Source of the DNA: Deltaproteobacteria bacterium
Lineage (GTDB): Bacteria; Myxococcota; Kuafuiibacteriia; Kuafuiibacteriales; Kuafuiibacteriaceae
Length of the DNA: 64,000 nt
Assembly (NCBI GenBank): GCA_040218735.1
Contig: JAVJQW010000046.1
Span: 64,001-128,000, forward strand
Direction: 5' to 3'
Shown here: in pieces, positions 39,443 through 60,064 of the stretch
Numbering within the stretch: position 1 is the first letter of the stretch
Layout of the letters: each line of letters opens with the position of its first letter
Notes under the pieces: generated by a model
The model's database searches: none
What the model was told of the DNA's origin: nothing
Seen by the model: only the letters and a program-made list of their open reading frames with translations
Translations under genes and position numbers: made by a program

Positions 39443-40660
39443 ATGCACACCTCGACGCCGCGATTCGCCTCGGGCCTTCTCCTCGCCCTCGTCGTCACCG
39501 CTTGTTCGGGAGGGGAGGAACCACCGCCCCCACCGCCGCCGACCCAGGTCCAGCTCACCGTGGTCGACGCGGTCGACGACGGGCCCCTCGCCGGCGCCTT
39601 CGTCTACGTCGCGGGCTCCGCCGGGTGGACCGAGGTGTCCGCGGACGGGGTCGTGACGCTGGAGGTCGACCCGGGCACCCACGCGTACTGGGTGGTCGCC
39701 CCGATGCACGTCACCGTGCCGCCGCCGCTCACCGACGCGCCGACGGTCGAGGCCGCCGCGAATCAGACCACCGAGGTGCGCGTCGTGGTGGACCGCCGCA
39801 GCGTCGGCGCCGCCGACGGGACGATCCGCGGCACGGTGACCGTAGACGGTACCCCCGCCGAGGGCGTCCTCGTGGTCGCCGCCGGCGTCCCGTCCTACGA
39901 GGGGTACTCGGACGCGACGGGCGCCTACGTGATCGCGGGCGTCGGCAACGGCAGCTTCCAGGTGCGCGCGCGGCAGGGCGGCACCGCCGGTGACGCATCG
40001 CAGAATGTCACGACGACGGCGGGGCAGACCTCGGACGGCGTCGACTTCGCGTTGGTGTCCGGCGGACAGGACGTGACCGGCACGATCGCCGGGGGCACCG
40101 GCTCCGGGCGCGTCGCGTTGCTCGACCCGGATGTTCGCCGTGTCGTCCCGGGGCTCTCGGTCTCGGCGGATCTGGCCTCCGGCTACACGATCACGGGCGT
40201 GCCGGCGGGGCGGTACCGACTGCTCGGCGCGTTCGACGCGGACGCCTACGTGATGGACCCCGAACCGATCCGCGAGAACGGGCTGCCCGTCGTCGACGTC
40301 GACGCCGCCGCCGTGACGCAGGACTTCGGCGTCGCCCCCGCGATCGATGGCCTCGCGCCGACGGGCACGGCGACGGCGACGCCGGAGCTCTCGTGGGCAC
40401 CGTTTGCAGGCGCGGACTACTACGTCGTCGACTTCCGTGACGCAGCGGGTCGAACCATCTGGGGTGGCTTCGACGCGACGGGGAACTGGTCGACGCGGAC
40501 CTTCGACACGTCCGTGATGTATGGCGGTCCGGCGCTCTCGCCGGGGGCGCGGTACACGTTCCGCGTGTTCGCTGCGGTGCAGGACCCGATCGTGCCCTCG
40601 GTGTTTGCGTTGGTCGCGGCGAGCGAGGCGGAGGGGGCGTCGTTCCGCGTGGCCCGGTGA
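39443..40660 (+). CDS. Lipoprotein with carboxypeptidase-regulatory-like beta-sandwich repeats
   Basis: Lipobox VTAC, poly-Pro linker, G-x-I-x-G-x-V...DATGAY-x-I-x-GV repeats. Confidence 0.75.
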   Translation: MHTSTPRFASGLLLALVVTACSGGEEPPPPPPPTQVQLTVVDAVDDGPLAGAFVYVAGSAGWTEVSADGVVTLEVDPGTHAYWVVAPMHVTVPPPLTDAPTVEAAANQTTEVRVVVDRRSVGAADGTIRGTVTVDGTPAEGVLVVAAGVPSYEGYSDATGAYVIAGVGNGSFQVRARQGGTAGDASQNVTTTAGQTSDGVDFALVSGGQDVTGTIAGGTGSGRVALLDPDVRRVVPGLSVSADLASGYTITGVPAGRYRLLGAFDADAYVMDPEPIRENGLPVVDVDAAAVTQDFGVAPAIDGLAPTGTATATPELSWAPFAGADYYVVDFRDAAGRTIWGGFDATGNWSTRTFDTSVMYGGPALSPGARYTFRVFAAVQDPIVPSVFALVAASEAEGASFRVAR

Positions 40661-40701
40661 GGGTTGACGTGGTTTCGAAAGGGTGGTCTGCGAAGAGGAC
40701 C

Positions 40702-42345
40702 ATGCGCGTTCGAACCGGGTTCTTCCTCATCGGCCTCTCGGCCTTCAGCTACGCCTGCGGCGGGATCTCCAACTGCAAGGAGGACGGCGCCGCGTGCGCC
40801 GAGATGCTGAACAAAAACGCGGAGAAGTGTGCCGCGGCCTACCAGCTCCGGCAGTCCGAGAAGAACCGGAAGTACTGCGTCAACGCGATCGACGTGGTGG
40901 GCGACCAGAAGATCGCCGCTGCGCTCCCCGGCCTGAAGGCGGTCCTGGCGGTTCCGGACTCGGACGTGCCGGACGACAAACACCGCGAAGAGGCGGTGAA
41001 GTCCCTCGCGCAGATCGGCGACGCGAGCGCGGTCCCGGATCTGGTCGCGGCGATCAACTTCACGGCGGGCACCAGCTCGGACCCGAAGGACAAGGCGGCG
41101 AACCTCACGAACGAGGCGATCGCGCAGGCGCTCGGTCAGCTGAAGGCGAAGGAGGCGGTGCCGAAGCTCATCGAGCTCACGAACAAGAGCCCGAACAACT
41201 ACGTCGTCCTGAAGTCGGTGCGTTCGCTCGGGCAGATCGGCGCGAAGGAGGCGGTGAAGCCGCTGGAGAAGATCGCGCTCGAGCACTCGAACAAGTTCAT
41301 GCGCAAGAACGCGGTCATCGCGCTGGGTGACATCGGCGATCCGTCGGCGACGGAGACGCTCATCCAGATGATGTTCGTCGAGTACCAGGGGGTGTCGTTC
41401 TACAAGGAGGCTTCGTTCGGCCTGTACCAGATCGGCCCGGCGACCTCCGAGGCGCTGATGAAGACGATGGCCGGCGAGAACAAGGAAGTGAACGCGTACT
41501 TCGAGAGCAAGGGTGGCCTGAAGACGTCGGCCATCAAGGCGAAGTGCGGGTTCGTGCTCGGTGACCTCCGCGACCCGCGCGCCGTCGAGCCGCTCCTCGA
41601 GGCCTTCAAGGAAGCGGCCGAGAAGCCGGACCCGGTGGTGCTCGTCTACGCGGCGGCGCCGCTCGGCGCGCTCGGCGACAAGCGCGCGGTGGGCCCGCTC
41701 GCGAAGGAGATGCTGACGCTCGACGCTTCGCTGCGCGACCCGATGATGCGTGCGCTCAACCACCTCGGCGATCGCTCGGTGGTGCCGGAGATGATCGAGG
41801 CGATGACGAAGGAGCACTTCGTCAAGGCGTGCATGAAGTCGGGCAACTCGAAGGAGGCCTGCACGAGCGACCAGACGAAGGCCTCGCTCTACGGCGCGCA
41901 GAAGGCGGCGATCGACCACGCGTCGAACCTCGCGGGCGCTGAGCACCTCGACGCCTACAAGAAGGCGGTCGAGGCCGAAGAGGACAAGGACATGAAGGAG
42001 TACGCGCAGGCGCGCCTGAAGCGCGTCGAGGCTGCGGGCGAGTGCAAGATGGACCCCGGCTGCTGGGTCAAGAAGCTGCAGGACTCCGACAAGCTGATCC
42101 GCGAGAAGGCCGCGTGGGAGCTCGGCCGCATCAAGGACAAGGGCTCGCTCGACGCCCTCGCGAAGGCGCTCCAGGACAAGAAGTCCGAGCCGCGCTCCGC
42201 CGCGATCATGGCGTACTGGGCCTTCGGCGACAAACGCGCCGTCGAGGCGATCGAGAAGCAGCTGGAAGACGAGGCCGGGATGGCGGACTACGTCCGCGTG
42301 AACGAGGACCTCAAGCGCCTGTTGGTCCACCTGAAGCGCTCGTAG
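40702..42345 (+). CDS. HEAT/PBS-lyase repeat lipoprotein
   Basis: SD GAGG, lipobox SYAC, repeated A-x-x-LG-x-IGD-x-x-AV-x-x-L. Confidence 0.85.
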   Translation: MRVRTGFFLIGLSAFSYACGGISNCKEDGAACAEMLNKNAEKCAAAYQLRQSEKNRKYCVNAIDVVGDQKIAAALPGLKAVLAVPDSDVPDDKHREEAVKSLAQIGDASAVPDLVAAINFTAGTSSDPKDKAANLTNEAIAQALGQLKAKEAVPKLIELTNKSPNNYVVLKSVRSLGQIGAKEAVKPLEKIALEHSNKFMRKNAVIALGDIGDPSATETLIQMMFVEYQGVSFYKEASFGLYQIGPATSEALMKTMAGENKEVNAYFESKGGLKTSAIKAKCGFVLGDLRDPRAVEPLLEAFKEAAEKPDPVVLVYAAAPLGALGDKRAVGPLAKEMLTLDASLRDPMMRALNHLGDRSVVPEMIEAMTKEHFVKACMKSGNSKEACTSDQTKASLYGAQKAAIDHASNLAGAEHLDAYKKAVEAEEDKDMKEYAQARLKRVEAAGECKMDPGCWVKKLQDSDKLIREKAAWELGRIKDKGSLDALAKALQDKKSEPRSAAIMAYWAFGDKRAVEAIEKQLEDEAGMADYVRVNEDLKRLLVHLKRS

Positions 42346-42547
42346 ACACGCCGAGCCCTTCGAGCAGGCCGCGCAGCTCCTTCATCGCTTGGTCGAGCTG
42401 CTCCATCCGATCCGCGTTCCGCACCGCCGCCATCGCGATGTCCTCGCCGCAGTGCGGGCACGCGACCTCCTCCGGTTTCACGAAGCTCTTGCACGCGTGG
42501 CACAGCGCGAGCTGCGGCGGGACTCGGCCTTTCGCTCGGTTCGTCAC
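42311..42547 (-). CDS. Small Zn-ribbon protein (78 aa), third gene of the radical SAM operon
   Basis: CHAC-x9-CPHC followed by an amphipathic helix. GTG start overlaps the rSAM stop (GTGA). Confidence 0.7.
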   Translation of the reverse strand: MTNRAKGRVPPQLALCHACKSFVKPEEVACPHCGEDIAMAAVRNADRMEQLDQAMKELRGLLEGLGVSTSASGGPTGA

Positions 42548-43803
42548 GCGAGCACCACCAGTCGGGGGTGTCCGACCTGCGTGTGGCGCGGCTCGGCGGC
42601 GATGCGCTTCACTTCGGCGCCGTCGTCGATGCGTTCCTCGATCAGCTCGAAGCCGCCGTAGTCGAACGGCTGGCCGGGCGCCGCGCGCACCTTGACGATG
42701 CGCTCGCGGAGGCCCTCTTCGGCGAGCTTGAGCGCGCGGTAGTGGCAGTACGGGTTGTTGCCGCTGCGACCGAACAGCGTGTGCGTCGTCCACGTGCAGC
42801 CCGCGCGGCAGACGTCGGCGTAGTAGCAACCTTGGCAGCGCCCCCACAGGTCCGCCGTGGTGCGCGTGCGGTTGAACGCGAGGGCGTCGGCGTCGTTCCA
42901 GATGTCTTCGAGGCTCAGGTCGCGGATGTTGCCGCCCGAGAACGGCGTAGTCGGGAGCGACGGGCAGCCCTTGATCGTGCCGTCCGCCTCGATGCCGAGG
43001 GTGTTGAGCCCCGCGTTGCAGCCCTTGAAGTGGCTGAACTCACTCCGCCCGCGCCACGCGTGTTCGTAGGGGCCGAAGTAACCGATGTTGTTGCCGGGGA
43101 TGAGGTCGATGCCGTGGACCTTCGCCTTCTCCCAGAGCTCGAACAGCACCGGATAGATCTCGAGCAGCTCGTACGGCTGCACCAGGAGCGCGTCGTTGTC
43201 CGCGGCGCGGCCCATCGCGACGGTGAGTTGGATCTGCCAGGTCGCGATCCCGATCTCGATGAAACGATCGAGCATCGCCGGGAGCTCGCCGAGGATCGAG
43301 CTGTGGATCTGCGTGTTGACGCTCAGCTCCATGCCGTAGCGCTTGCACGTCTCGAGCGCGGTGATCGCCTTGTCGAACGAGCCCGGTACGCCGCGGATCG
43401 CGTCGTGTGTCTCGGCGAGCCCGTCGATCGAAACGCCGATGACGCGCAGCCCCGCCTCCGCCGCTTCGGCGACGCGTTTCTCGGTGAGGTTGCGCGCGCC
43501 GGTCTGAACGCCCGGCAGCATCCCCGCGTCCGCGACGGCGCGGATGAGCGTCGTCCAGTCCTTGCGGAGGTACGCTTCGCCGCCGATCAGCGTGACCTCA
43601 CGGCAGCCGAGCGCCGCGAGCTGCGTGACGACGTCGAGGCACTCCGCAGTGGACAGCTCGTCGGGGCGTCGGCGCGCGGCGCGCGACCCGCAGTGGTTGC
43701 ACTCCAGGTCGCACGCGAGCGTGATCTCCCAGACCGCGTGGGCGGGGAAGGGCGACGTCCAGTCGTCCTCCGTCAGCCTTCGGCCCGAGTCGATCGTCGC
43801 CAT
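42544..43803 (-). CDS. Radical SAM/SPASM peptide/protein maturase, resembling the TIGR03913/PlpX splicease clade
   Basis: VWEITLACDLECNHCGSRA (CxxxCxxC), LIGGEAYLR, WQIQLTVAMGRA, PGNNIGYFGPYE. SPASM C-x-AG...GCPSL...CQGCYYADVCRAGC and NNPYCHYR. Confidence 0.88.
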   Translation of the reverse strand: MATIDSGRRLTEDDWTSPFPAHAVWEITLACDLECNHCGSRAARRRPDELSTAECLDVVTQLAALGCREVTLIGGEAYLRKDWTTLIRAVADAGMLPGVQTGARNLTEKRVAEAAEAGLRVIGVSIDGLAETHDAIRGVPGSFDKAITALETCKRYGMELSVNTQIHSSILGELPAMLDRFIEIGIATWQIQLTVAMGRAADNDALLVQPYELLEIYPVLFELWEKAKVHGIDLIPGNNIGYFGPYEHAWRGRSEFSHFKGCNAGLNTLGIEADGTIKGCPSLPTTPFSGGNIRDLSLEDIWNDADALAFNRTRTTADLWGRCQGCYYADVCRAGCTWTTHTLFGRSGNNPYCHYRALKLAEEGLRERIVKVRAAPGQPFDYGGFELIEERIDDGAEVKRIAAEPRHTQVGHPRLVVLA

Positions 43804-43805: not shown

Positions 43806-44429
43806 TCAGTTCCCTTGGATCGCCGCGTTGAGATCCTTGAGCGCTTCCATCGAAGCCGTCACGCCCTGCGGGGTCTCCGTCGAGCCACGCATGACGTTGG
43901 AGGCGCTCGCCGTCGCGAACACCGCAGCGCCGCGGCGCGGTGCGGCCGCGATGCCCGTGCCGTCGGTCGACGTCGTCGCCACAGAGGCGACCGGCGTCAG
44001 CGTGTCGGCCGCGTGCGCGGAGAGCATGCGCGCCATCGCGAGCTTCTCGGGGTTGCTCGGATCAGCGCGGACCTCTTCGGCGGCGCGACGAATCGCCACC
44101 GCGTACAGCGCCACGATCTCGTCGCCCGGGCGCGTGTCGGGGAGCGCGCCCATCATGCGGAGGAACGTCGCGCGCGCGGCCGGCTCCATCGCCTTGCCGC
44201 CGAGCAGCTTCGCGAGGCCTTCGCGGGCCTCCTTCGCGTAGGTCGTGGGCCCGCCGTCCATCGCGCGCGCGGTCGCCGGGTCGGCGTCGAACGCGGCCTT
44301 GATCGCGTTCATCTCCTGCCAGGTGATCTGCCGGCCGCCGAGGCTGCCGGAGTCGGCGAAGGCGTCGACTTGGATCTTCGCGGCGGCGAGGAGCTGTTGG
44401 GTGGTGTTGGGCGTCTTTCCGATGGCCAT
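43806..44429 (-). CDS. Hypothetical 207-aa protein, candidate substrate of the adjacent radical SAM enzyme
   Basis: SD GGAG; stop is 2 nt before the rSAM start; internal PGDEIVALYAVA motif. Confidence 0.75.
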   Translation of the reverse strand: MAIGKTPNTTQQLLAAAKIQVDAFADSGSLGGRQITWQEMNAIKAAFDADPATARAMDGGPTTYAKEAREGLAKLLGGKAMEPAARATFLRMMGALPDTRPGDEIVALYAVAIRRAAEEVRADPSNPEKLAMARMLSAHAADTLTPVASVATTSTDGTGIAAAPRRGAAVFATASASNVMRGSTETPQGVTASMEALKDLNAAIQGN

Positions 44430-46181: not shown

Positions 46182-46721
46182 TCAGTTCTCGACGAGCGGC
46201 CCCTCGACCTCGACGCGGAACGCATCCTCGGGGATCTCGAGCGCGAGGAGGTTCGACTCGACGCAGGCCTTCGCGTCTTCGCTCACCACGCCGTAGTGGA
46301 CGACGCCGGTGAAGTGATCGATGCCGAGCGTCTGCATGTCCTCGATGACGAACACACCCCTGGAGCGGAGCTCGTACCGCCACAGCTGGGCGAAGTCATA
46401 CGTGGTCTTTTGCGGCGTCGCTGGATTGTTGCGCCAGGGGCGCTCGCCGTAGATCTCCACGAGCGCGTCGCGCGCCTGGTCGGCGAGGGCCTGGCTCGGC
46501 TCGACGAGCAGCACCGCGAGGTGCACCTGATCCCGCATGACGTAGGTGCCGCCGAACCCCGGGACGGTCTCGACGAGCGCCGCGAGCGCGCGTTGGTCTT
46601 CGAAGCCGGGGCCGGTCGGGAACGTCTCGGCCGCCGCCGCGACCGTCGGGCACACGAAGGGCTCCGGGGCACATCCCCAGGCGAACGCGACGAGGGCCAA
46701 CGCGAGCGTCCAGCGCATCAT
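46182..46721 (-). CDS. Hypothetical lipoprotein
   Basis: Lipobox AWGC; fills the gap between convergent genes. Confidence 0.65.
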
Positions 46722-46809
46722 GGACCGTCGTACAACAGACGCCCCCGCATTGGCGACGAAGGGAAGTCGCCCCGTGGCGGGACCTGTTGGACACTCCCGA
46801 AATCGCCCC

Positions 46810-48585
46810 ATGTACGAAGAAGAAGACGAAGAAACCTACGAAGGCTTGAGCTGGTCGCGCCGCACCTTCATGCAGGCGACCGTCGCGGCTTCCGTGCTCG
46901 CCGCGAGCCGCGCCGCGCTCGCGAAGAAGACCGCCGGCACCGCCGCCGCGTACATCGCGGGGCAGCTCGCTCGCCACGGCGCGACGACGCTCTTCGGTGT
47001 CCCCGGCGCGACCTGTGATCCGCTCTTCGAGGCGTGCCACGGCAACCCGAAGATGTCGCTCGCGATCACCAGCAGCGATCTCGAAGCGGGCTACGCGGCC
47101 GACGGCTTCGCACGGATGCGCGGACTCAGCGCGCTGTCGGTGACCTACGGCGTGGGGACGATGAGCCTGATGTCCGTCGTCGCGGGGGCGTACGCCGAGC
47201 GGAGCCCGATCGTCGTCTTCAACGGCGGCCCGCACGGCACCGACCTGAGGCTGCAACGCGACTTCGACACGTACTTCTCACACTCCACGGGGCACGCGAG
47301 CAGCGACCTCGAGATGTTCCGCCGTATCACCGCGTACGCGAAGCGCGCGGAGCGGGCGAAGGACGTCCCGCGGGTCGTTGACGAAGCGATCCGCGTGGCG
47401 CTGCAGCAGCGACGCCCGGTCTACGTCGAGATCCCCAAGAGCCTGTGGACCGCGCGGGTGAGCGCGACGGGCGACACGATCGACGGGCGCGTCGCGGCGA
47501 GCGGGAAGGAGGCACAGGTCGCGGAGCGGATCGTCGACGTCCTCGCGAAGGCGAAGCGCCCCGCGCTGCTCCTGGGGGTCGAGCTCGAACGCTACGGGCT
47601 GCACGCGGAGGCGAAGCGCCTCGTCGAGCACCTCGGCGTCCCGTACGCGACGACGATGCTCGCGAAGACGGTCCTCGCCGAGGGGGCGCCGCTGTTCGCG
47701 GGGGTGTACGTCGGCGGTCGATCCGTCCCGGCGATGCGGAAGTTCCTCGAAGGCGCCGATGCCGTCCTCGCGCTGGGCTGTGTGTTCGGCCGGCAGTACC
47801 GGACCGTCGCGACGAAGTCCTCGAACCTGGTCGCGGTGTCGAACGGACGCGCGCGGTTCGGGCTCGGCAAGAAGGCGAGTGAGACGCCGGTGGCGCTCGA
47901 CGCGTTGATCGATGCGCTCCTCGCGAAACGGTTCAGCAAGAACGCTGCGCACGCGGCGACGAACCCACGTCGCGGTCGTTCGTTCGACGAGCGACGCGCC
48001 TCGCTGTCGAAGCGCGCGGCGGAGGGGCCCCTGACTTACGACGGTCTCCTGAAGACGGTGTCGGATCGGCTGCGCCCGGAGCACGTCGTCCTCACCGACA
48101 CGAGCCTGATGATGTACCCGGCGGGGGATCTCGACGTTCGCGGTCGCGGCGCATTCGTCTGCAACGGCGTGTGGCAGGCGATCGGCTTTTCGGCGGGAGC
48201 GGCGGCCGGCGTGGCGATCGCGGCGCCCGACAAGAAGCCGATCGTGATCTGCGGGGACGGCGGCTTCCAGATGACGGCGCAGGCGTTGTCGACGATCGCG
48301 AAGATGAAGCTCCCGGTCACGGTCATCGTCGTGAACAACGGGCACTACGGCATCGAGCAGTTCCTCCTCGACCGCAACTACTTCGACGCGGGGAAGGGCG
48401 GCATCCCGTACCTCGATCTCAACGACTGGGACTACGTCGGTTTCGCGCGCGCGCTGGGGATCACCAACGCCAAGGCGGTCACCACGACGGAGCAGCTCGC
48501 GGCGGCGCTGTCGGGCGACGGTCCCGCGTTCATCGACGCGAAGATCGCGCGGAGTGATCTCCCCGCGCAGCTGAGGAAGGCCTGA
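46810..48585 (+). CDS. Tat-exported ThDP-dependent enzyme, pyruvate/indolepyruvate decarboxylase family
   Basis: SRRTFM twin-arginine signal with ALA cleavage site. FGVPG, AGYAADGFAR, TYGVG and GDG-x-FQMT...NNGHYGIE. Confidence 0.88.
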   Translation: MYEEEDEETYEGLSWSRRTFMQATVAASVLAASRAALAKKTAGTAAAYIAGQLARHGATTLFGVPGATCDPLFEACHGNPKMSLAITSSDLEAGYAADGFARMRGLSALSVTYGVGTMSLMSVVAGAYAERSPIVVFNGGPHGTDLRLQRDFDTYFSHSTGHASSDLEMFRRITAYAKRAERAKDVPRVVDEAIRVALQQRRPVYVEIPKSLWTARVSATGDTIDGRVAASGKEAQVAERIVDVLAKAKRPALLLGVELERYGLHAEAKRLVEHLGVPYATTMLAKTVLAEGAPLFAGVYVGGRSVPAMRKFLEGADAVLALGCVFGRQYRTVATKSSNLVAVSNGRARFGLGKKASETPVALDALIDALLAKRFSKNAAHAATNPRRGRSFDERRASLSKRAAEGPLTYDGLLKTVSDRLRPEHVVLTDTSLMMYPAGDLDVRGRGAFVCNGVWQAIGFSAGAAAGVAIAAPDKKPIVICGDGGFQMTAQALSTIAKMKLPVTVIVVNNGHYGIEQFLLDRNYFDAGKGGIPYLDLNDWDYVGFARALGITNAKAVTTTEQLAAALSGDGPAFIDAKIARSDLPAQLRKA

Positions 48586-49763
48586 TGATCACCCGACGCC
48601 AGCTCCTGATCGCCGGCGCGACGATGCCGTTCGCGCCCGACGCTCTCGCGAAGCCGAAGAACCTCCGCGGCGGTGAGATCCTCCCGGATCCTACGTTCGC
48701 GAAACCGAAGGACTACCTGGTCGGCGTGCGCCCTTACCGCAAGACGGGTGTGCGGCTCGAGCGCGTCGACGCTCCGCTGAAAGGCGCGAACGGCGACATT
48801 CACCTCGTGCACAACTACGGCCACGGCGGCGCGGGTGTGACGTTGAGTTGGGGGTGCGCGAGCGTCGTCGTCGATCACGTCGACGCCATTCGTCAGAAGC
48901 TCAACGTGGAAGCGCCCCCCGCGATCGCGGTGCTGGGCACCGGCATCATCGGGCTGACGACGGCGACGGAGCTGCGGCGCCGGTGGCCGAAGGTGCCGAT
49001 CACGATCTATGCGAAGAGCCTCGACCTGAAGCGCACGGTGTCCTGGGTCGCGGGCGGGCAGTTCGAGCCGTCCGGGATGCACCGGCTCTACAAGGGGCGC
49101 GAGCGTCGCAAGGAGCTGCACGACCTCGTGCGGCGCTCCGCGAAGCGTGTCATCGAGCTGCAGAACTCGGGGAAGCGGCACGACTACGGCGTCGCGGTGC
49201 GGAAGAACTACGCGCTCGATCGGAAGCTCGCGGCGTTCGAGGTCGGGATGCCGCGAGACGTCGTCGCGAAGCCCCGCCGCGGGAACCTCCCGTTCGCGAA
49301 CCTGAACATCCGCGGCCGCGAGTATCAGACCTGGCTGATGACGCCGATGATCCTGATGCCGAAGCTCGTCGAGGATCTGAAGGCGTCCGGCGTGAAGTTC
49401 GTCGAGCGATCGTTTTCGACCCCGGCCGACGTCGCCAAGCTCTCCGAGTCGGTCGTCGTCAACTGCACGGGGCTCGGCTCACGCGAGCTCTTCAGCGACG
49501 GCGCGCTCATCCCGCAGCGTGGTCACAACGTGCTGCTCGAGAAGACCGACCCCAAGCAGTTCTACTTCTTCAGCGGCGGCTGCGAGAACTGGGTCATCGC
49601 GTACGTCTTCTGTCGTCAGAACGACGTCGTGGTGGGCGGCACGATCCAGAAGGGTCGCGACGACGTGAAGATCACGCCGGAGGACAAGAAGGTCTTCGCG
49701 CAGCTCCTCACCAACGGACGCGCGCTGTTCGACGGCAAGGTCTCCGCCTGCGTCCGTCCTTGA
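48585..49763 (+). CDS. Tat-exported, circularly permuted D-amino-acid oxidase-family flavoprotein
   Basis: TRRQLL signal. VGVRP and HNYGHGGAGVTLSWGCA precede the GTGIIG Rossmann motif; VVNCTGLG follows. TGATG coupling. Confidence 0.85.
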   Translation: MITRRQLLIAGATMPFAPDALAKPKNLRGGEILPDPTFAKPKDYLVGVRPYRKTGVRLERVDAPLKGANGDIHLVHNYGHGGAGVTLSWGCASVVVDHVDAIRQKLNVEAPPAIAVLGTGIIGLTTATELRRRWPKVPITIYAKSLDLKRTVSWVAGGQFEPSGMHRLYKGRERRKELHDLVRRSAKRVIELQNSGKRHDYGVAVRKNYALDRKLAAFEVGMPRDVVAKPRRGNLPFANLNIRGREYQTWLMTPMILMPKLVEDLKASGVKFVERSFSTPADVAKLSESVVVNCTGLGSRELFSDGALIPQRGHNVLLEKTDPKQFYFFSGGCENWVIAYVFCRQNDVVVGGTIQKGRDDVKITPEDKKVFAQLLTNGRALFDGKVSACVRP

Positions 49764-49842: not shown

Positions 49843-50708
49843 ATGCGTTCTCCGTACTTCGCGCTCCTCGCTCTCTCGCTCCTCACCACGCGCGCCGCCC
49901 TCGCGGAGACGCCGCCCGCCGACGTCGCCGCCGCGGGTGAAGAAGATCCGCTCGCGCAGTTCGCGTGGCAGATGGAGGGCCAAGGCAAGCTCGGCACCCG
50001 TGCCACACTCGAGATCCCGCAGGGGTTCCGATTCCTCGAAGCCGCCGAGGCGTCGCGGCTCGTCGAGGCGATGGGCAACCTCACCTCGCGCAAGGAGGTC
50101 GGCTGATCGCGACGCACGACCTCGAGTGGTTCGTCGTCTTCTTCTTCGACGACGTCGGCTACGTGAAGGACGACGAAAAGGACGAGCTCGACGCCGACGA
50201 CATGGCGGAGTCGATGGCCGAGAACCTCCAGTACTCGAACGAAGAGCGCCGCGACCGCGGGCTCGAGGAGCTGTCCTTCGACGGCTGGGCGATCCCGCCT
50301 CGTTACAACGAGACCTCGAACCGCCTGGAGTGGGCGCACCGCCTGCGTTCGGCGACCGGCGTGAGCGTCAACTACAACACCCGCGTCCTCGGCCGGCACG
50401 GCGTCATGCGCGTCATCCTCGTCACCGACCCCGAGCTGCTGGAGGCAACGCTCCCGCAGTACAACAGCTTGATGTCCGGCTTCGACTTCACGAACGGCGA
50501 GCGCTATGCGGAGTACCGGGCCGGCGACAAGATCGCCGAGTACGGCCTCATCGCGCTCGTCGCGGGCGGTGGCGCCGCGGTCGCCGCGAAGACCGGGCTG
50601 CTGACCGCGCTCGTCGCGTTCTTCAAGAAGGGCGCGAAGCTCATCATCGTCGGGCTCGCCGCCGTGGCGGCCTTCGTGAAGAAGCTGTTCTCGGGGCGCC
50701 GGGACTGA
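49843..50708 (+). pseudogene. DUF2167 family membrane-anchored protein interrupted by a 1-nt frameshift
   Basis: N-terminal part (signal, P-x-GFRFL, MGN) stops at 50106. The C-terminal part (GYVKDD, GW-x-x-PP-x-Y, VNYNTRVLGRHG, G-x-RY, GDKIAEYGL) continues in the -1 frame. GGCTG appears where GGCCTG is expected. Confidence 0.75.
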
Positions 50709-53396: not shown

Positions 53397-54071
53397 TCAG
53401 ACGCGACGGACGAGGCCGCGGACGGCGTCGTGGACGCGGCGGTCGAAGAGGCTGGAGACGTGCGCGCGGTCGTCGAGGATCAGCTGCTGCGCGCCGGCCA
53501 AGAGCGCGCTGTCGAACGGCTCGATGAACTGGTCGGCGCGCGCGGCGACGGTGAGGACGCGGTCCTCGAGGCGGCGCAAGCGATCTTGCGTCGCGAGCAC
53601 CTCGGTCATCATCGTGCTGTCGGGGCGGAGCATCCGGAGCTTGGCGCTGGGCGCGAACTTCGAGCGCCACGTCCCGTGCAGCGGCGCGCAGATGGAGACG
53701 AAGCCGGCGACGTGCGGGAGCGCGACCTCGCTCTGCAGCACCATCCGCAGGAGCAACCCGCCGAGGCTGTGGCCGACGACGACGAGGCGATCGACCCGCG
53801 CGCCGAGCTGTTCGATGTGCGCGGCGAGGTCGCGGGCGCGCCCGCGGGGGTCGGTGAGTGAGTTGTACTCGAAGGAGCCGAACCAGTCGGCCTCGTCTTC
53901 GAGGGCGGTCCGCATCGAGAGGAACTGCGCGCCGTTCGCGCCGAGCCCGGGGACGAAGAGCACGCCGACGTCGGCGTGACCCGTGGCGTTGCGGTCGAGC
54001 CGGCGGCGCTGGGGCGCGAGGAGCCCGAGGCGCACGTAGGCGAACGCTTCGTCACGGAGGAGGCGGAACAC
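53397..54071 (-). CDS. Alpha/beta hydrolase (lipase/esterase family)
   Basis: LFVPG, VGHSLGG nucleophile elbow, APLHGT, terminal His. Confidence 0.8.
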   Translation of the reverse strand: MFRLLRDEAFAYVRLGLLAPQRRRLDRNATGHADVGVLFVPGLGANGAQFLSMRTALEDEADWFGSFEYNSLTDPRGRARDLAAHIEQLGARVDRLVVVGHSLGGLLLRMVLQSEVALPHVAGFVSICAPLHGTWRSKFAPSAKLRMLRPDSTMMTEVLATQDRLRRLEDRVLTVAARADQFIEPFDSALLAGAQQLILDDRAHVSSLFDRRVHDAVRGLVRRV

Positions 54072-54076
54072 GTGCG

Positions 54077-54991
54077 TTACTTCTTCCCGGGGACCTTCGG
54101 CACCGGGATGTCGCCGAAGAGGCTCTTGCCGTGGTTGTGGCCGTCGTCCTCGGTGCCGGAGCCGCGTTCGAGATCCTGACCCGTCGACAGCGAGAACCGC
54201 CCTGGTTCGAGGATGGTGTGGAACGCGCGCTCACCGAGCCAGCGGAAGAGGAGGTCGCGGCCCCCGATGCGCACGAGCCAGTCGAGCGCGGCGTTGGCGG
54301 CGACACTCATCTCGTTGGCGGCTTCCGCGCGGAACATGGAGTGGCGCCAGATGAGTTTGCCGTCGCGCCAACTCTCGAGCCCGAGGGTGACTCGGGCGGC
54401 GCGCTGGCGTGGGTTGGGTTGTTTCATCGACTCGACGCCGACCTTGAGGATGACTTCCGCCTGTTTGGCCGGGACGAAGTCGATCGAGAACCCAGCCGTC
54501 TTCAGGCCTTTTTCGAACGCCGCCTGAATCGTCTTCTTGTCGAGGTCCGCGCCGCGCACGAGGAGTGCGGCCTTCAGCGTGCGTTGTTTCTTCGTGCCGA
54601 GTTTTTTCTTCGCGTAGGCGTGGTTTGCGAGCGTGCGATCGAACCAGGCTTTCAGCCCGGGCTCGGTGAGATCGAGCCTCGCGAAGGTCGTGAACGCCTT
54701 CTCCCAGCGGATGGCCTCCGGGAGGCGTTCGTTGCCGCGGAGCTTCTTGCGCAGCTCGATCGCGGCGTCGCGCAGCTTGAGTGAGATGACGAGGTTCGGG
54801 TCGCTGCGGTGTTTGTCTTGCGCGGCGTCGAGGACGGCTTGAGCGTTGGACGGGCCGCGGTTGTCGTCGAGCTCGGCCTCGGCGGCCTGGGCGACGGTGG
54901 CCCGGAGGACCTCCGGCAGCGCCGGGTCGAGGCGTTCGGTCATGCCCGCCTGCGCGGCGAGCGTGAGGGCGATGGCGGCGAGGGCGCTCAC
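54077..54991 (-). CDS. Hypothetical exported protein
   Basis: Short hydrophobic N-terminus; GTGA coupling with the upstream gene. Confidence 0.65.
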   Translation of the reverse strand: MSALAAIALTLAAQAGMTERLDPALPEVLRATVAQAAEAELDDNRGPSNAQAVLDAAQDKHRSDPNLVISLKLRDAAIELRKKLRGNERLPEAIRWEKAFTTFARLDLTEPGLKAWFDRTLANHAYAKKKLGTKKQRTLKAALLVRGADLDKKTIQAAFEKGLKTAGFSIDFVPAKQAEVILKVGVESMKQPNPRQRAARVTLGLESWRDGKLIWRHSMFRAEAANEMSVAANAALDWLVRIGGRDLLFRWLGERAFHTILEPGRFSLSTGQDLERGSGTEDDGHNHGKSLFGDIPVPKVPGKK

Positions 54992-55593
54992 TTCTTCTTG
55001 GGCTTGGCTTTGTCGTGCGCGGCGAGGGTCGTCTCGATCTCGGCCGAGAAGTACTCGACGAGTGAGCCCTTCGCGTCGTGCTTCGACTTGACGACCTTGC
55101 CTTCGCGGTCGATCAGGAACGTAGCGGGGAGGGCGACGACCTTCCCGAGGTACTTCTGCGAGACGTAGTCGGCGCGGTCCACGACGACGGTGAACGGGAG
55201 CTTCTTCTCGTCGAGGTAGCGTTGGAGCTTCTTGGCGTCGTCGTCGCCCTCTTCGACGAGCGCGACGAGGAGCACGTAGAGGCCGCGCGCCTGGTACTTC
55301 TCGTGGGTCTTCACGAGCTCGGGCATGGCGGCGAGGCACGGCTCGCAGTCGGTGCGGAAGAAGTCGAGCAGCACGGGGCGCTTGGGGGCGTAGCTGCGCT
55401 CGCGGCCTTCGTAGGCGAGGTCCGACAGGCGGACCATCGCGCGGTCGAGGGCGCGGAGCTGGAACGCGGGCGCGGCGTCGCCGGGCTTGGGCGTCTTCGA
55501 CTTCTTCTTGGGGCGGGCGGTCGCGGTGCTCGCGGCCATGAGGCCGGCGAGGAGCAGGCACGCGGTCGTCTTGGTCATTCGAAATCCACTCAC
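54988..55593 (-). CDS. Exported TlpA/peroxiredoxin-like redoxin
   Basis: PGDAAPAFQL, LLDFFRTDCEPC, LPATFLIDREG. Start is 55593 or 55578. Confidence 0.85.
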   Translation of the reverse strand: MSGFRMTKTTACLLLAGLMAASTATARPKKKSKTPKPGDAAPAFQLRALDRAMVRLSDLAYEGRERSYAPKRPVLLDFFRTDCEPCLAAMPELVKTHEKYQARGLYVLLVALVEEGDDDAKKLQRYLDEKKLPFTVVVDRADYVSQKYLGKVVALPATFLIDREGKVVKSKHDAKGSLVEYFSAEIETTLAAHDKAKPKKK

Positions 55594-56717
55594 TTGTCGA
55601 GCGCTCCCAGGGAGGTCTGCAGCCAGCTCACCATGTCGGCTTCGGCTTTGCTGCAGCCTTTCTCCATGGCGCCTTTGAAATGGACGTGTCCACCCTTCTG
55701 GGGCTTCACTTCTTTTACGGAAATCACGCGATTGGCGTCCGTGTCGTAGACGACGCCCCGGGCGCCGCAGTGGACGAAGGTGAACCCGTCCTCCTTAGCG
55801 GTCAGGTTGGCGCTGTACTGGACGGCGAGGACGTAACCCGCGTTGCGGAGCGAGGTGGTCGACTCGGGGTTCGACTGGGCGAGGATCTGTCGGGCGAGTC
55901 CGCCGTCGACGGCTTCCGTCGCGACCTTGAACCCGCCGGTGGCGACCTGCTGTTTGATGGCGCCGACGCGGTGGGATTGGCAGGACGCCTCTTTGCCGTC
56001 GTGGTCGCACTCGACGGCGACGGCCATGACGCCCTTCCGCTCCTTGGCCATCGACTCGAGGCGGGTCGAGAGGTCGGCGATGGCGTCGTACAGGAGGGTG
56101 GTGTTGGTCAGCTTGGCGTGTCGGACCGGGACCATGGAGCGCATCGGGCCGAGGGTGGTCTTGGCTTCGGCGCACCGGGTGCGGGCTTCGGACCAGCGTT
56201 TGTTGGTCGCGGCGGTGTCGGCGGCGATGTAGAGGTCGAGCGCGCGCTGGGCGCGGTCCTGCTGGCCTTGGACGACCTCGGCGTAGCGGGCTTTGGGCCA
56301 CTCGATGAGGACGTAGGCGTCGTACGAGCCGTCGCTGCCCTGGCCGATGGCGGCGTCCTTCACTTCGGCTTCCTTGATGGTCATCTCGTCGCCGGCGACG
56401 TCGACGGTGAGCGAGTACGACTGGTTGAGGACGCCGTTCTTCTCGACCTCTTCGGAGACGGCTTCGGACTTGGCCGTGGCGCCGCAGAAGACGGTCAGCT
56501 CGGCGAGGGCGGCCTGGACGGCGAGCTCACGGGCCATGGACTCGTCGGACGCGCCGTTGGCGGCCCCGACGAAGTACAGCTTGCTCACGCCGGTGGGCTT
56601 CTTCGCGTACCAGCCGGGCGCGGGGAAGCTGGTCCGGCTCCCGCCGGTGCTGCCCTTGGTGGTGCCGCAGCCGACGGCGACGCCGAAGACGAGGGGCCAG
56701 AGCCATCCGAGCTTCAT
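55590..56717 (-). CDS. Lipoprotein with LPP20-like N-terminal domain
   Basis: Lipobox AVGC; P-x-W...LYFVG...A-x-x-x-A-x-x-x-AL-x-EL pattern. Confidence 0.65.
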   Translation of the reverse strand: MKLGWLWPLVFGVAVGCGTTKGSTGGSRTSFPAPGWYAKKPTGVSKLYFVGAANGASDESMARELAVQAALAELTVFCGATAKSEAVSEEVEKNGVLNQSYSLTVDVAGDEMTIKEAEVKDAAIGQGSDGSYDAYVLIEWPKARYAEVVQGQQDRAQRALDLYIAADTAATNKRWSEARTRCAEAKTTLGPMRSMVPVRHAKLTNTTLLYDAIADLSTRLESMAKERKGVMAVAVECDHDGKEASCQSHRVGAIKQQVATGGFKVATEAVDGGLARQILAQSNPESTTSLRNAGYVLAVQYSANLTAKEDGFTFVHCGARGVVYDTDANRVISVKEVKPQKGGHVHFKGAMEKGCSKAEADMVSWLQTSLGALDK

Positions 56718-56798
56718 GGACTCTCAATACTTGGTAACCCCGGGGGGAAACAATCCATTTGTCCCCTCGGGGGGGCGATCACGCACGTCGGCGGGGCG

Positions 56799-57443
56799 TC
56801 AGGCGTAGGACAGGGCGGGGGCGCTTCGCAGGTAGGCGGCGGATTCGAGCTGCTGGAGCATGAACCCGGCGACGTCGGCGCGGGAGATCTTCAGCGTGAG
56901 GTCGGCGTCGGGGGTGCCGAGGCCGTGCCAGAAGTCGCCGGTGGAGGGGCCGTCGGTGAGGTTCGGGGGGCGAACGATGGTCCAGTCGAGGCCGCTGGTG
57001 CGGATGATGGCCTCTTGCGCCTCGTGCTCCTGGAGGGGGCGGCGAAGGTACGTCGGGAAGATGATCCAGCGGTAGAGCGCGGGGAGGTCCTTCTTGCTGT
57101 CGCCGGCCCCGAGCACGGAGACGCAGACGAGGCGGCGGACGTTGGTCGCGCGCATGGCGTCGACGATGGTCTGCGTGCCTTCGGAGCGGACGCGGCTCTT
57201 GCTGAGCGCGGGGGCGCCGAGCGCGATCAGGGCAGCGTCGGCGTTCTTGAGCGCGAGGCGGACGACGGCGGGGTCGTGCACGTCGCCTTCGACGACCGAC
57301 AGGCGCGGGTGCTCGGGCAGCTTGCTCGGGTCGCGCGCCAGGGCGGTGACGCGGTGGCCGAGAGCGAGCGCTTGGTCGAGGAGCGCGCGTCCGATGCCGC
57401 CGGTGGCGCCGAAGAGGGTGAGGTGGGTGTTCGTTGTTTTCAT
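56799..57443 (-). CDS. NAD(P)H-binding flavin reductase/BVR-B-like atypical SDR
   Basis: LFGATGGIG, VTALARDP, GLDWTIVRP, ISRADVA. Confidence 0.9.
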   Translation of the reverse strand: MKTTNTHLTLFGATGGIGRALLDQALALGHRVTALARDPSKLPEHPRLSVVEGDVHDPAVVRLALKNADAALIALGAPALSKSRVRSEGTQTIVDAMRATNVRRLVCVSVLGAGDSKKDLPALYRWIIFPTYLRRPLQEHEAQEAIIRTSGLDWTIVRPPNLTDGPSTGDFWHGLGTPDADLTLKISRADVAGFMLQQLESAAYLRSAPALSYA

Positions 57444-57499
57444 GGGCTCAGCATGGCGTTTGGCTGGCCATGAGCCAAATGATTGACGACCATAGCGGC

Positions 57500-58453
57500 A
57501 TGACGGACGTGCATGGTCTGGCGAGCCTCGACGCGAACCTGTTGGTGACGTTGGACGTGTTGCTCGCGGAGCGGAACGTAACGCGCGCGGCGGAGCGGGT
57601 GGGGGTGACGCAGTCGGCGATGAGTCACACGTTGCGTCGGCTGCGGGACTTGTTTGGCGATCCGTTGTTGGTGCGCGGGAAGGGGGAGATGGTGCTGACG
57701 CCGCGGGCCGAGGCGTTGGTGGTGCCGTTGCGGAGTGGGTTGGTGAGTTTGGCGCGGGCGATCGCGCCGCCGGTGGCGTTTGATCCGTCGACGGCGTCGC
57801 GGGTGTTTCGGATCGCTTCGCCGGACTTGTTCGATCTGATCGTGTTGCCGCGGTTGCTGGCGCGGGTTCGTGCGGAGGCGCCGGGGGTGGATCTGGTGTT
57901 CGTGCCGTTGCCGCGCGGCGAGGTGGCGGAGGCCTTGATGACGGGGGAGCTGGATCTGGCGATCGTGCCGGTGCGGATGGGGGAGGGAGAGGCGACGTTC
58001 GGGCCGGTGACTTCGGGTGACTTGATGCGGCGGGTTTTGTTCCGCGACTCACACCGGGTTTTCGTGCGGCGGGAGCACCCGGCGATGGGTAAGCGGGGGA
58101 TCTCGAGGAAGAAGTACGTGGGGCTGCCGCACGTGTTGGTGTCGCCGGCTGGGGCAGGCGTTGGGTTGGTGGACGAGGCGCTGGCGCGGGTGGGTTTGCG
58201 TCGGCGGGTGGCTTTGCGGGTGCCGAACTTCGCGACGGCCGCGGAGATCGTGGCGGGGAGTGACTTGGTGCTCACGGCGCCAGGGGCCTTGGGGCGGGTC
58301 GAGGCGCTGCGGGGGCGTATGAGTGATTGCGCGGTGCCGGTGGAGATGGAGGGGCATGCGCTGACGATGGTGTGGCACCCGAGGTTCGGTGAGGAGGCGG
58401 GGGCGCGGTGGTTGCGCGGGGTGATGGTGGACGTGGGTGGGGGCGCGGGGTGA
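57500..58453 (+). CDS. LysR family transcriptional regulator, divergent from the reductase
   Basis: LDANLL...NVTRAA...TQSAMSHTLRRLR...DPLLVR...LTPRA. Confidence 0.93.
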   Translation: MTDVHGLASLDANLLVTLDVLLAERNVTRAAERVGVTQSAMSHTLRRLRDLFGDPLLVRGKGEMVLTPRAEALVVPLRSGLVSLARAIAPPVAFDPSTASRVFRIASPDLFDLIVLPRLLARVRAEAPGVDLVFVPLPRGEVAEALMTGELDLAIVPVRMGEGEATFGPVTSGDLMRRVLFRDSHRVFVRREHPAMGKRGISRKKYVGLPHVLVSPAGAGVGLVDEALARVGLRRRVALRVPNFATAAEIVAGSDLVLTAPGALGRVEALRGRMSDCAVPVEMEGHALTMVWHPRFGEEAGARWLRGVMVDVGGGAG

Positions 58454-58574
58454 TCTTCGGATCAGGCGGAGGCTGAGGGGCGGCGTGTGATACGCTCGTC
58501 CGCGACACCGTCGTTCTGCGGGACTGCGAGATGGTGTCGCCGCGGGGGGGTATCTCGTTCGTTCTGCAAGACCG

Positions 58575-58594
58575 CGAAACGCTTAGTTAGGCCG
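58575..58594 (+). other. attI-like recombination site at the head of the cassette array
   Basis: CGAAAC-GCTTA-GTTAGGC simple-site layout. GTTAGGCCG (58586-58594) is the exact complement of CGGCCTAAC (59647-59655) at the end of cassette 1. Confidence 0.55.
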
Positions 58595-58610
58595 ATTTGG
58601 AGTTAGAGCC

Positions 58611-59654
58611 GTGTGGAAGTTCAAGCACGTGACCGCCTGGCAACTCGTTGGAGTCCAGCCACCTAAGTCCGATGTCGTGCTGCAATCTGCACGGTCCCTA
58701 CGAATAGTCTTCACCGCCGACATCGCACCGTTCGTCGTCGAGGCCGACCGCGCGCGGGTCGTGCCTGAGATGCTTCTTCGAGGCGAAGCAGGAGAAGGTG
58801 CCGCTTTGCGGCTTCGAAGCAACGTAGAGAAGGTCCGCAGACAGCGTCCCGACCGCGGCGCCTGGCTCGTCTTCGAGATGACCGGAGACGCGCAACCAGT
58901 TGACACAACAGGTGCCGCCGACTGGGAGGATGTTCGCGTCCTCCCGATTCCCGCAACGGAATCGCCAGGACACGCGTCTTCCTATAGCCCCGACGCCCCG
59001 ACGGTTCGCCGTTTAGCCGGGGCAGCCGCCGCCATCCTTCAGCCACGACAGATGCGCCAGTTCGCCAGCAACACGGCGCTCCTTGATGACGCCGGTCGAC
59101 AGGTGTACGCGACACGCCTCGTCATTCCGGGCGCCGAGCTGTTCCTATCGGAGGTTCCCGACCCTGTGCTTCTTGGGCAGTCCAAGAAGCTGTTCGGCAG
59201 GCTCGACACCGACCTCCGGTTGAATTCGGCGCTCGAACTACTTGCGGCTTCGCAGGACGACTGCTTTGACGACCAACGCGAGTTCCATATCTCTTGGGTA
59301 GCCGTCGAGGCCTTTGCGAAGGCACTACGCAAGGATTACAAGGCGAAGTACAAGACAATCGTCAGCAGTCCAATAGGCGGTGGTCAGCTGCTTACGATCC
59401 AGACGAACACGTCGAAGCAGAACGGATCGATTTCAAAAACCATGGTTGCTCTTGCCTACATCTTTGTATGTCTTGACCCCGCGGGTGCCGAGGCCGACTT
59501 CGATGAAGTCGATCGAATTCGCGATCAGCGGAACGACTATGTCCATTCACAACCTGATTCGAAGCTGCAGCATGGTCCCGAGTCGAGGCGACTCCGGGCG
59601 ATCCTCTTCAAGTACGTTTTGCTACACCTTCAGGGGGGCGCGCGAACGGCCTAA
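58611..59654 (+). CDS. Cassette 1: hypothetical protein with C-terminal HEPN-like (Rx4H) domain
   Basis: W-x-A-x-E helix and RDQRNDYVH (R-x4-H). The stop codon lies inside the attC R'' box. Confidence 0.65.
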   Translation: MWKFKHVTAWQLVGVQPPKSDVVLQSARSLRIVFTADIAPFVVEADRARVVPEMLLRGEAGEGAALRLRSNVEKVRRQRPDRGAWLVFEMTGDAQPVDTTGAADWEDVRVLPIPATESPGHASSYSPDAPTVRRLAGAAAAILQPRQMRQFASNTALLDDAGRQVYATRLVIPGAELFLSEVPDPVLLGQSKKLFGRLDTDLRLNSALELLAASQDDCFDDQREFHISWVAVEAFAKALRKDYKAKYKTIVSSPIGGGQLLTIQTNTSKQNGSISKTMVALAYIFVCLDPAGAEADFDEVDRIRDQRNDYVHSQPDSKLQHGPESRRLRAILFKYVLLHLQGGARTA

Positions 59655-59709
59655 CAACCCGTTGAAGACTGACGGGGCTTCGCCCCGCAGCTTAACGGGA
59701 GCGTTAGAC
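59649..59709 (+). repeat. attC site (intact)
   Basis: R'' GCCTAAC, L'' CGTTGAAG, central CTGACGGGGC-TTC-GCCCCGCAG, L' CTTAACG, R' GTTAGAC. Two extrahelical bases in the expected positions; 61 nt. Confidence 0.88.
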
Positions 59710-59727
59710 GTAAGGAGGCCTGAGCAC

Positions 59728-59820
59728 GTGGACTTTAGATCGCACTTCTCTGCAGTCGTCGAGAGACTCCAGGCCGAGTATCGTCTTGCAGCGGCCTACC
59801 CGTATCGTGGAGGCAGTTGA
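59728..59820 (+). pseudogene. Cassette 2: 30-codon ORF or truncated gene
   Basis: Perfect SD TAAGGAGG right after attC, GTG start, MDFRSHFSAVVERLQAEYRLAAAYPYRGGS*. Confidence 0.4.
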
Positions 59821-60001: not shown

Positions 60002-60064
60002 GCCGAACAACACGTCGCAGAGGGACGGACGGCTTCGCCGAGCGCTGAACGTGAGTGCTACGGC
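60002..60064 (+). repeat. attC site (degenerate)
   Basis: GCCGAAC-AACACGTCGCAG...CGGCTTCGCCG...CTGAACGTG; the R' box is mutated (GCTACGG). Confidence 0.6.

Follow-up and report, generated by a model that had tools for sequence, protein, structure and literature searches.

Can an enzyme of the pyruvate decarboxylase (PDC) type work outside the cytoplasm, as the partner of a D-amino-acid oxidase (DAAO)? The question is raised by two adjacent genes in a 64,000-nucleotide stretch of contig JAVJQW010000046.1 from a member of the Myxococcota, which we refer to as the window and whose numbering we use throughout. The original prediction, made from the letters of the window, read these genes as a coupled pair encoding a thiamine diphosphate (ThDP) enzyme of the PDC/indolepyruvate decarboxylase (IPDC) family and a DAAO, both with signals for the twin-arginine translocation (Tat) system, and proposed a two-step route running outside the cytoplasm. 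Here we describe the structure of the pair, the conservation of its presequences and linkage, and two features that the original prediction missed: a circular permutation of the oxidase and a reduced set of PDC catalytic residues in the ThDP enzyme. The conserved pairing points to an undescribed D-amino-acid processing route outside the cytoplasm, and we are confident that the two enzymes form a functionally coupled, exported pair.

A translationally coupled gene pair

The first gene lies on the + strand at 46810-48585 and encodes a PDC/IPDC-type ThDP enzyme of 591 amino acids (aa; P0001) that matches Pfam TPP_enzyme_N/M/C. It is followed at 48585-49763 (+) by a gene for a 392-aa, circularly permuted flavoenzyme (P0002) of the family of DAAO and D-aspartate oxidase (DDO), which matches Pfam DAO. 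The junction at 48573-48587 (+), read directly from the sequence, holds the Shine-Dalgarno-like run GAGGAAGG (48573-48580) and then TGATG, in which the TGA of the ThDP-enzyme gene (48583-48585) and the ATG of the oxidase gene (48585-48587) overlap by one base. Both open reading frames (ORFs) and their translational coupling are as originally described. Guanine-plus-cytosine (GC) content by codon position also marks two co-directional + strand genes, at 46546/46810-48585 and 48585-49763, and GC around the pair is 66-71%.

Both enzymes carry conserved twin-arginine presequences

The presequence of the ThDP enzyme (residues 1-38; 46810-46923, +) is MYEEEDEETYEGLSWSRRTFMQATVAASVLAASRAALA followed by KK. 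We parse it as MYEEEDEETYEGLSWS, the RR pair (46858-46863), TFMQATVAASVLAAS and RAALA, with a cleavage-like site between ALA and KK. In the oxidase, residues 1-22 (48585-48650, +) are MITRRQLLIAGATMPFAPDALA followed by KP, parsed as MIT, the RR pair (48594-48599), QLLIAGATMPFAP and DALA, with KP after the ALA. The motifs are SRRTFM...ALA in the first protein and TRRQLL...ALA in the second, and both presequences end A-x-A. We scored such N-termini with a strict rule of our own, which calls for an RR pair followed by x-hydrophobic-hydrophobic and by a stretch of 12 or more uncharged residues. Both proteins satisfy this rule, as do the N-termini of 101/121 ThDP and 81/121 oxidase sequences; in 70-aa windows taken from the interior of these proteins it is satisfied in 1/806 and 7/474 cases, respectively. 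A looser RR motif occurs in 110 of the 120 ThDP homologues and in 100 of the 121 oxidase rows, query included, and most homologues lacking it are visibly truncated at the N-terminus. The rest of the signal varies among homologues while the RR motif persists.

Both presequences sit outside the catalytic folds. Position 38 of the P0001 profile aligns to residue 2 of the solved PDC chains, which makes residues 1-38 a presequence added ahead of the fold. In the structural model of the oxidase, residues 1-20 have a predicted local distance difference test score (pLDDT) of 53-63 against a mean of 86.8. The source genome also encodes TatC (226 bits). The twin-arginine signals first noticed in the window hold up on both proteins, and Tat export of the two enzymes is strongly predicted from these sequence features.

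The two sets of signals differ in their n-regions. At least two Asp/Glu residues occur within the 12 residues before RR in 76/111 ThDP presequences (mean net charge -1.6), compared with 4/101 oxidase signals (mean net charge +0.1). Examples of acidic starts, in P0001 (residues 1-16; 46810-46857) and its homologues (P0123-P0242), are MSDDE... and MHDDD.... An n-region of this kind is unusual for a Tat signal. We speculate that the acidic n-region might delay export until ThDP has been loaded or the subunits have oligomerised.

The oxidase is a circularly permuted DAAO-type flavoenzyme

Pfam DAO matches the oxidase in two stretches. Two related NCBIfam models of D-amino-acid dehydrogenases also match: one, 429 positions long, aligns through its positions 363-406 to residues 63-106, and the other through its positions 3-79 to residues 113-191. 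When a 27-sequence profile of the family was compared with the PDB, 17/17 sequence matches were DAAO or DDO chains, each matched in two segments whose order is exchanged: profile 115/121-377 corresponds to chain 2/8-258, and profile 54-115 to chain 280-342 (284-342 in human DDO, 280-336 in pig DAAO). The transposed module (48651-48920, +) contains GVRPYR with R49, HNYGHGGAG...WGCA with G82 and a long helix, which in canonical DAAO make up the C-terminal ~60 residues. It precedes the Rossmann flavin adenine dinucleotide (FAD)-binding start and the substrate domain (48921-49763, +), which together are equivalent to canonical DAAO residues ~2-258. Thus the two signature motifs, at residues 47-92 (GxRPxR at 47-52, HNYGHGGxG...WGCA at 75-92), come before the Rossmann GTGIIG at 118-123; this GxGxxG motif, with G118, G120 and G123 invariant in 27 sequences, is internal and not N-terminal, and P0002 lacks the canonical order of Rossmann motif first and signature at the C-terminus. 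HxYGHxGxG lies near the N-terminus in 120/121 close homologues and, at 80/80 genome loci, ahead of the remainder of the oxidase match within the open frames, so the permutation is family-wide, and on the sequences compared it is older than the split between predicted exported and non-exported forms.

An AlphaFold (AF2) model of P0002 (mean pLDDT 86.8, predicted template modelling score 0.85) placed human, pig and yeast DAAO/DDO at the top of a Foldseek search, with E values of ~1e-13 to 1e-14 for human and pig DAAO and human DDO. All listed ranks through 33 were DAAO or DDO (E 3e-14 to 5.5e-11), whereas glycine oxidase, sarcosine oxidase and GlpD scored 1e-7 or worse, poorer by 6-7 orders of magnitude. 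The NCBIfam ThiO and DadA models gave weak, partial matches. In pig DAAO, Arg283, Tyr228 and Gly313 bind the alpha-carboxylate and amino group of the substrate. The aligned residues in P0002 are R49, Y340 and G82, all invariant, and an alpha-amino-acid substrate therefore fits. These results bear out the assignment of the oxidase to the DAAO type.

Compared with the canonical DAAO/DDO enzymes of pig, human, yeast and a few actinobacteria, P0002 has the same fold, finds its best structure and sequence matches among them, and shares GxGxxG, GxRPxR, HNYGHGGxG...WGCA and the equivalents of Arg283, Tyr228 and Gly313. It differs in its permuted order, with the last ~60 canonical residues placed first, and in its Tat presequence; it has no conserved counterpart of pig Tyr224, carries an invariant Arg344 four residues after Y340, and is 18-23% identical to the solved enzymes. 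In the passages of PMC9844085 that treat bacterial DAAOs, GxRPxR and YGHGGxG are given as their marks, and about ten such genes are counted, all in one phylum, printed as 'Acinetobacteria', which we take to mean Actinobacteria; those passages mention neither signals nor a permutation. The permuted oxidase, in contrast to that single phylum, occurs in Myxococcota, Alphaproteobacteria and other phyla. One word-based search returned 6566 relatives across at least five phyla, and we found no characterised member of the family. Relatives of the permuted oxidase also occur as a domain, at 32-40% identity, in four long proteins of 1042-1185 aa (P0243-P0246), one of which has a subtilase domain (PF00082) as well.

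The ThDP enzyme resembles PDC but has an altered active site

P0001 has the PYR, middle and PP domains of its superfamily, and the GDG...N motif for ThDP/Mg (G482, D483, G484 and N510) is invariant in a 26-sequence alignment. Its best NCBIfam matches are indolepyruvate/phenylpyruvate decarboxylase models, with scores of 208.9 and 208.4 bits where the cut-offs are 554.5 and 946, and it falls well short of all the NCBIfam cut-offs for decarboxylase equivalogs, including that of NF005712 (5-guanidino-2-oxopentanoate decarboxylase; 160 bits, cut-off 500). A profile of the 26 sequences matched PDC, IPDC, KdcA and phenylpyruvate decarboxylase (PPDC) in the PDB at 249-301 bits, as against 175 bits or less for benzaldehyde lyase, ALS and pyruvate oxidase, and the closest solved kin are all 2-oxo-acid decarboxylases.

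We mapped the active site by alignment to A. pasteurianus PDC (Z. mobilis / A. pasteurianus numbering). In PDC, the catalytic residues are Asp27, His113, His114 and Glu473, and Glu50 activates the cofactor. Asp27 and His113 are lost in P0001, replaced by Ala67 and Ser157, whereas His114 and Glu473 have invariant equivalents in His158 and Glu516, leaving two of the four catalytic residues (H158, E516) and an incomplete tetrad. Glu50 corresponds to Asp90, a position that is Asp/Glu in the family (Asp in at least 90% of rows, Glu in P0234), a conservative but unusual swap. Two residues past Ala67, Cys69 is invariant and is retained also in signal-less relatives. With two of the four PDC catalytic residues missing, simple decarboxylation is not assured, and the altered site leaves room for a carboligase or other variant reaction. 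The proposed PDC/IPDC membership thus stands with respect to the nearest solved relatives and fails with respect to half of the catalytic set. PDC, IPDC, KdcA and PPDC are cytoplasmic enzymes; P0001 shares with them the three-domain architecture, the GDG...N motif and the His114/Glu473 equivalents, and differs by its 38-residue predicted Tat presequence, by Ala, Ser and Asp at Asp27, His113 and Glu50, and by the invariant Cys69.

A search of 1.84 billion cluster representatives found 514 relatives of P0001 at E<=1e-30; those above 400 bits form about a dozen clusters, mixed with and without the N-terminal extension. Two relatives are fusions. In P0327 (1326 aa), a P0001-like ThDP enzyme (33% identity) follows an N-terminal flavin amine-oxidase domain (PF01593); the fusion looks coherent, uses a different oxidase family, and would serve as an analogy for an oxidase-ThDP pathway and no more. 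In P0252 (948 aa), a P0001-like ThDP enzyme carries a C-terminal M28 peptidase domain, and the oxidase is not part of the fusion. The two fusions hint at amino-acid- or peptide-derived substrates. A third candidate, P0207 (863 aa), considered as a fusion of the ThDP enzyme and the oxidase, was rejected as a gene-call or frameshift artefact because its junction and tail resemble out-of-frame translation.

Linkage and signals co-vary across genomes

Among 301 sampled Myxococcota genomes, 10 carry the oxidase (E<=1e-40), the source genome included. It was found in 0/19 genomes of the source genome's own family, and the remaining carriers are 6/115 and 3/4 genomes of two other families. In 9/9 of these other carriers, a ThDP-enzyme orthologue (51-58% identity) lies 3-18 nucleotides upstream of the oxidase on the same strand, showing that the two genes are a conserved coupled cassette.

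Across 80 genome loci with oxidase relatives, a P0001-like gene adjoins the oxidase at 13. At seven of them (Myxococcota, Hyphomicrobiaceae and other Alphaproteobacteria) the ThDP gene is upstream, and both proteins have RR presequences (7/7). At the other six (Mycobacterium, Nonomuraea, other Actinomycetota and two Alphaproteobacteria) it is downstream, and neither protein has a presequence (6/6). The signal state of the partners therefore matches in 13/13 paired loci. The pair and both of its signals do recur in other genomes, the check proposed with the original prediction. Its companion concern, that the genes might be unlinked elsewhere, applies in part: linkage holds in every other carrier among the sampled Myxococcota and at the 13 loci, but the oxidase is partner-less in related lineages.

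To this comparison we added a quick maximum-likelihood tree of 81 oxidases, with Shimodaira-Hasegawa-like approximate likelihood-ratio test (SH-aLRT) support and no rows dropped; the N-terminus of one of them (L023) is missing from the data. A single clade of 25 rows (SH-aLRT 100) takes in all 14 paired ones, and within it Tat-type and signal-less pairs form two subclades. Its 56-row sister clade (Sphingomonadales, Acidobacteriota and others) has RR signals throughout and no paired row. Outside the Tat subclade, the unpaired oxidases of the other subclade are signal-less at L012, L015 and L019 and have RR signals at L017, L021 and L025. At partner-less clade loci (L020-L080, e.g. L037, L038, L041, L049 and L060) the RR motif is often followed by a lipobox-like ...LLSGCAT..., which suggests that these oxidases are predicted Tat-exported lipoproteins of a family that appears uncharacterised.

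Counting the 13 loci together with the window, there are 14 paired stretches, and no third gene is common to three or more of them; none of the neighbours of the pair in the window recurs beside the pair elsewhere. Pfam scans of the neighbours found otherwise unrelated genes. A SAM-dependent methyltransferase gene (TPMT/TehB-like) lies directly upstream of the signal-less oxidase in 2/6 such pairs, at L011:2793-3446 (Mycobacterium) and L016:4008-4712 (Nonomuraea), and in another signal-less pair (L018) a BBE-type FAD oxidase is encoded downstream.

Surroundings of the pair in the window

On its 5' side the pair is bordered by an ORF on the opposite strand (46182-46811) with no Pfam match; its signal-like hydrophobic stretch ends ...AWGC, and on our reading the product is a predicted lipoprotein. 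A glyoxalase-fold gene and a response regulator also lie upstream on the opposite strand. On the 3' side are a DUF2167 gene, a gene of no assigned family and a VWA gene. The DUF2167 gene is split by a frameshift into 49843-50106 (+), which includes a signal peptide and covers profile positions 5-48, and 49965-50708 (+), in another frame, which covers 53-237; it represents a pseudogene or, alternatively, an error in the assembly. A promoter scan found no promoter-like site, and the single terminator-like site is within shuffle expectation.

Two other regions of the window drew our attention. At 42544-43803 (-) a radical SAM/SPASM protein adjoins a 207-aa protein without a Pfam match (43806-44429, -), with a HEAT-repeat protein nearby at 40657-42345, and this may be a peptide-maturation locus. 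The region 58600-62000 has a GC content of 0.59-0.63, compared with about 0.68-0.70 elsewhere, and none of its ORFs passes the filter on GC at third codon positions (GC3). It contains three ORFs, two without a Pfam match and one SMI1/KNR4 (SUKH-1) immunity-like, directly after a LysR regulator; an Rfam search of 54000-64000 gave no match. This region is possibly acquired DNA.

A proposed route and its alternatives

We propose that the two genes form a self-contained operon. Each product would fold and take up its cofactor while still in the cytoplasm (ThDP/Mg2+ in one case, FAD in the other), and the two would then be exported separately by Tat to the periplasm, possibly beyond. There, the permuted DAAO/DDO-type flavoenzyme would oxidatively deaminate a D-alpha-amino acid, probably derived from peptidoglycan or the environment, to yield a 2-oxo acid, ammonium and reduced flavin, the last being reoxidised by O2 to give H2O2 or by another acceptor. 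The PDC-like ThDP enzyme would take the 2-oxo acid and remove CO2, and the resulting aldehyde would be released or ligated to an acyloin. The sequences show the gene structure, the families, the permutation, the conservation of presequences and linkage and the co-varying localisation states; from them we infer actual export, the identity of the substrate, the order of the steps and the fate of the product. For the full route from amino acid through oxo acid to aldehyde or acyloin, we judge the balance to be close to even. Decarboxylation outside the cell could possibly pull the reaction forward or stop the oxo acid from quenching H2O2; it could also possibly supply a diffusible aldehyde or acyloin, or detoxify non-canonical D-amino acids before they enter peptidoglycan. 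A complex prediction for the mature ThDP enzyme with the mature oxidase scored 0.00; it was run without controls and has no bearing on binding either way.

Several observations weigh against the exported route. The h-region of the oxidase signal is short, with 12-13 uncharged residues, contains a Pro and is directly followed by an Asp. With Ala, Ser and Asp at the positions of PDC Asp27, His113 and Glu50, the ThDP enzyme may be something other than a plain decarboxylase. On the quick tree, the subclades that separate pairs with both signals from pairs with neither are distinguished by gene order as well, and the matched localisation may represent as few as one evolutionary switch. Within the Tat subclade, 3/11 oxidase loci (L004, L006 and L008) have no adjacent ThDP gene. 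When five genomes with unpaired oxidases (L004, L006, L008, L017 and L025) were searched at E<=1e-40, a P0001-like gene was not found in four; the fifth has one of 31% identity elsewhere on a contig. The ThDP partner is thus an add-on that the oxidase does not require. Finally, the neighbour scans revealed no aldehyde dehydrogenase, transporter, catalase or electron acceptor conserved beside the pair, an aldehyde dehydrogenase being present at one locus (L002).

The reaction of the ThDP enzyme is open to a different interpretation, in which the pair is exported and coupled and this enzyme acts mainly as a carboligase or lyase, joining the oxo acid to a second carbonyl to form an alpha-hydroxyketone that serves as a signal or secondary metabolite. 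Loss of the residues at PDC Asp27 and His113 favours carboligation, and the replacements at Ala67 and Ser157, the invariant Cys69 and the scores far under every decarboxylase equivalog cut-off are in keeping with it; so are the methyltransferases and the BBE-type oxidase beside signal-less pairs, which resemble small-molecule tailoring. However, benzaldehyde lyase and ALS score more than 70 bits lower than the decarboxylases that are the nearest solved kin, the His114 and Glu473 equivalents are retained, and the pair is not within a biosynthetic cluster in the window, so we consider a mainly carboligating enzyme unlikely. We assign a similarly low probability to the idea that the flavoenzyme acts on something other than a free D-amino acid, such as glycine, an N-alkyl or acidic amino acid, an opine or an L-amino/hydroxy acid, or that it is a dehydrogenase with a periplasmic acceptor, with the ThDP partner handling the oxo product. 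The family is a deep permuted branch at low identity to solved enzymes, Tyr224 is not conserved, Arg344 is invariant, the ThiO and DadA matches are weak and partial, and a passage in PMC9844085 notes that glycine oxidases can carry the same motifs. Nevertheless, every PDB sequence match and every listed Foldseek rank through 33 is a DAAO or DDO, glycine and sarcosine oxidases trail far behind, and the Arg283, Tyr228 and Gly313 equivalents are invariant.

Doubts about the presequences or the pairing itself carry less weight. If the presequences were uncleaved membrane anchors or chance motifs, the enzymes would act at or inside the cytoplasmic membrane; the acidic ThDP n-region, the short oxidase h-region and the abundance of Arg-rich N-termini in genomes of 68-70% GC speak for this, but the strict pattern is ~45-650 times commoner at N-termini than in internal windows, the presequences precede the folds and are missing as a block in the signal-less clade, and both end A-x-A and keep RR while other signal positions vary. 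We regard this possibility as improbable. That the genes are neighbours by accident and belong to unrelated pathways is less probable still: the oxidase does stand alone at 67/80 loci, but linkage is complete in the nine other Myxococcota carriers, the pair recurs in both gene orders in Myxococcota, Alphaproteobacteria and Actinomycetota, the signal states always match and the genes are translationally coupled.

Returning to the exported pair, the original proposal of a route outside the cytoplasm is partly supported, with signals that co-vary between the partners, but the pair also occurs in a cytoplasmic form, which means that the module is not intrinsically extracytoplasmic. The signal-less sister cassette also argues for a core function that is metabolic rather than that of a weapon, and the prey-scavenging and toxin roles once suggested are speculative. 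We tentatively hypothesize, holding this at somewhat less than even confidence, an undescribed module in which the permuted oxidase and the first ThDP-loaded Tat cargo strip nitrogen extracellularly from environmental or peptidoglycan D-amino acids, giving aldehydes or acyloins and H2O2, with a cassette that spreads horizontally and has a cytoplasmic sister version.

Comparison with known systems

The individual parts belong to known superfamilies. The novelty lies in the permuted oxidase, the changed active site of the ThDP enzyme, the agreement of signal states between partners, the patchy spread of the cassette and the acidic ThDP presequence. In the D-arginine route of P. aeruginosa, the FAD D-arginine dehydrogenase DauA (named in PMC5619798) is followed by the ThDP 2-ketoarginine decarboxylase AruI. 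The logic is the same, from a DAO-superfamily flavoenzyme through a 2-oxo acid and a ThDP decarboxylase to an aldehyde, but that route is cytoplasmic, its genes are not known to form an operon pair and DauA has the unpermuted order. By its NF005712 score, P0001 does not qualify as an equivalog of AruI. The Ehrlich pathway consists of a transaminase, a 2-oxo-acid decarboxylase and then formation of an alcohol or acid, the amino-acid-derived 2-oxo acid being decarboxylated by a PDC-family enzyme; here the first step would be catalysed by an oxidase instead of a transaminase, the location is predicted to be extracytoplasmic, and there is no linked aldehyde dehydrogenase. Cofactor-bearing Tat cargoes include molybdo-, FeS-, Cu-, FAD- and NADP-enzymes, and our pair resembles them in having N-terminal signals of the S/T-R-R-x-F-L type on enzymes that need their cofactors before export. 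No ThDP-containing cargo has been described among them as far as our literature search extends, and in the full text it covered, with subscription journals and supplements outside that coverage, we found no Tat-exported ThDP enzyme, no exported or periplasmic DAAO and no permuted DAAO, in agreement with the original view that the pair has no described equivalent.

If export is true, ThDP joins the cofactors that Tat carries across the membrane, and an enzyme of the PDC type, which is active as a dimer or tetramer with ThDP at the subunit interface, works outside the cytoplasm. DAAOs are important biocatalysts and biosensor enzymes of which, according to the passages of PMC9844085 on this topic, very few bacterial examples are known. 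The Tat and non-Tat sister cassettes offer a natural comparison for how localisation evolves jointly in a two-enzyme pathway. A periplasmic D-amino-acid route would bear on how bacteria use the peptidoglycan D-amino-acid pool, on how they protect the wall from non-canonical D-amino acids, and on their extracellular production of H2O2 or aldehydes.

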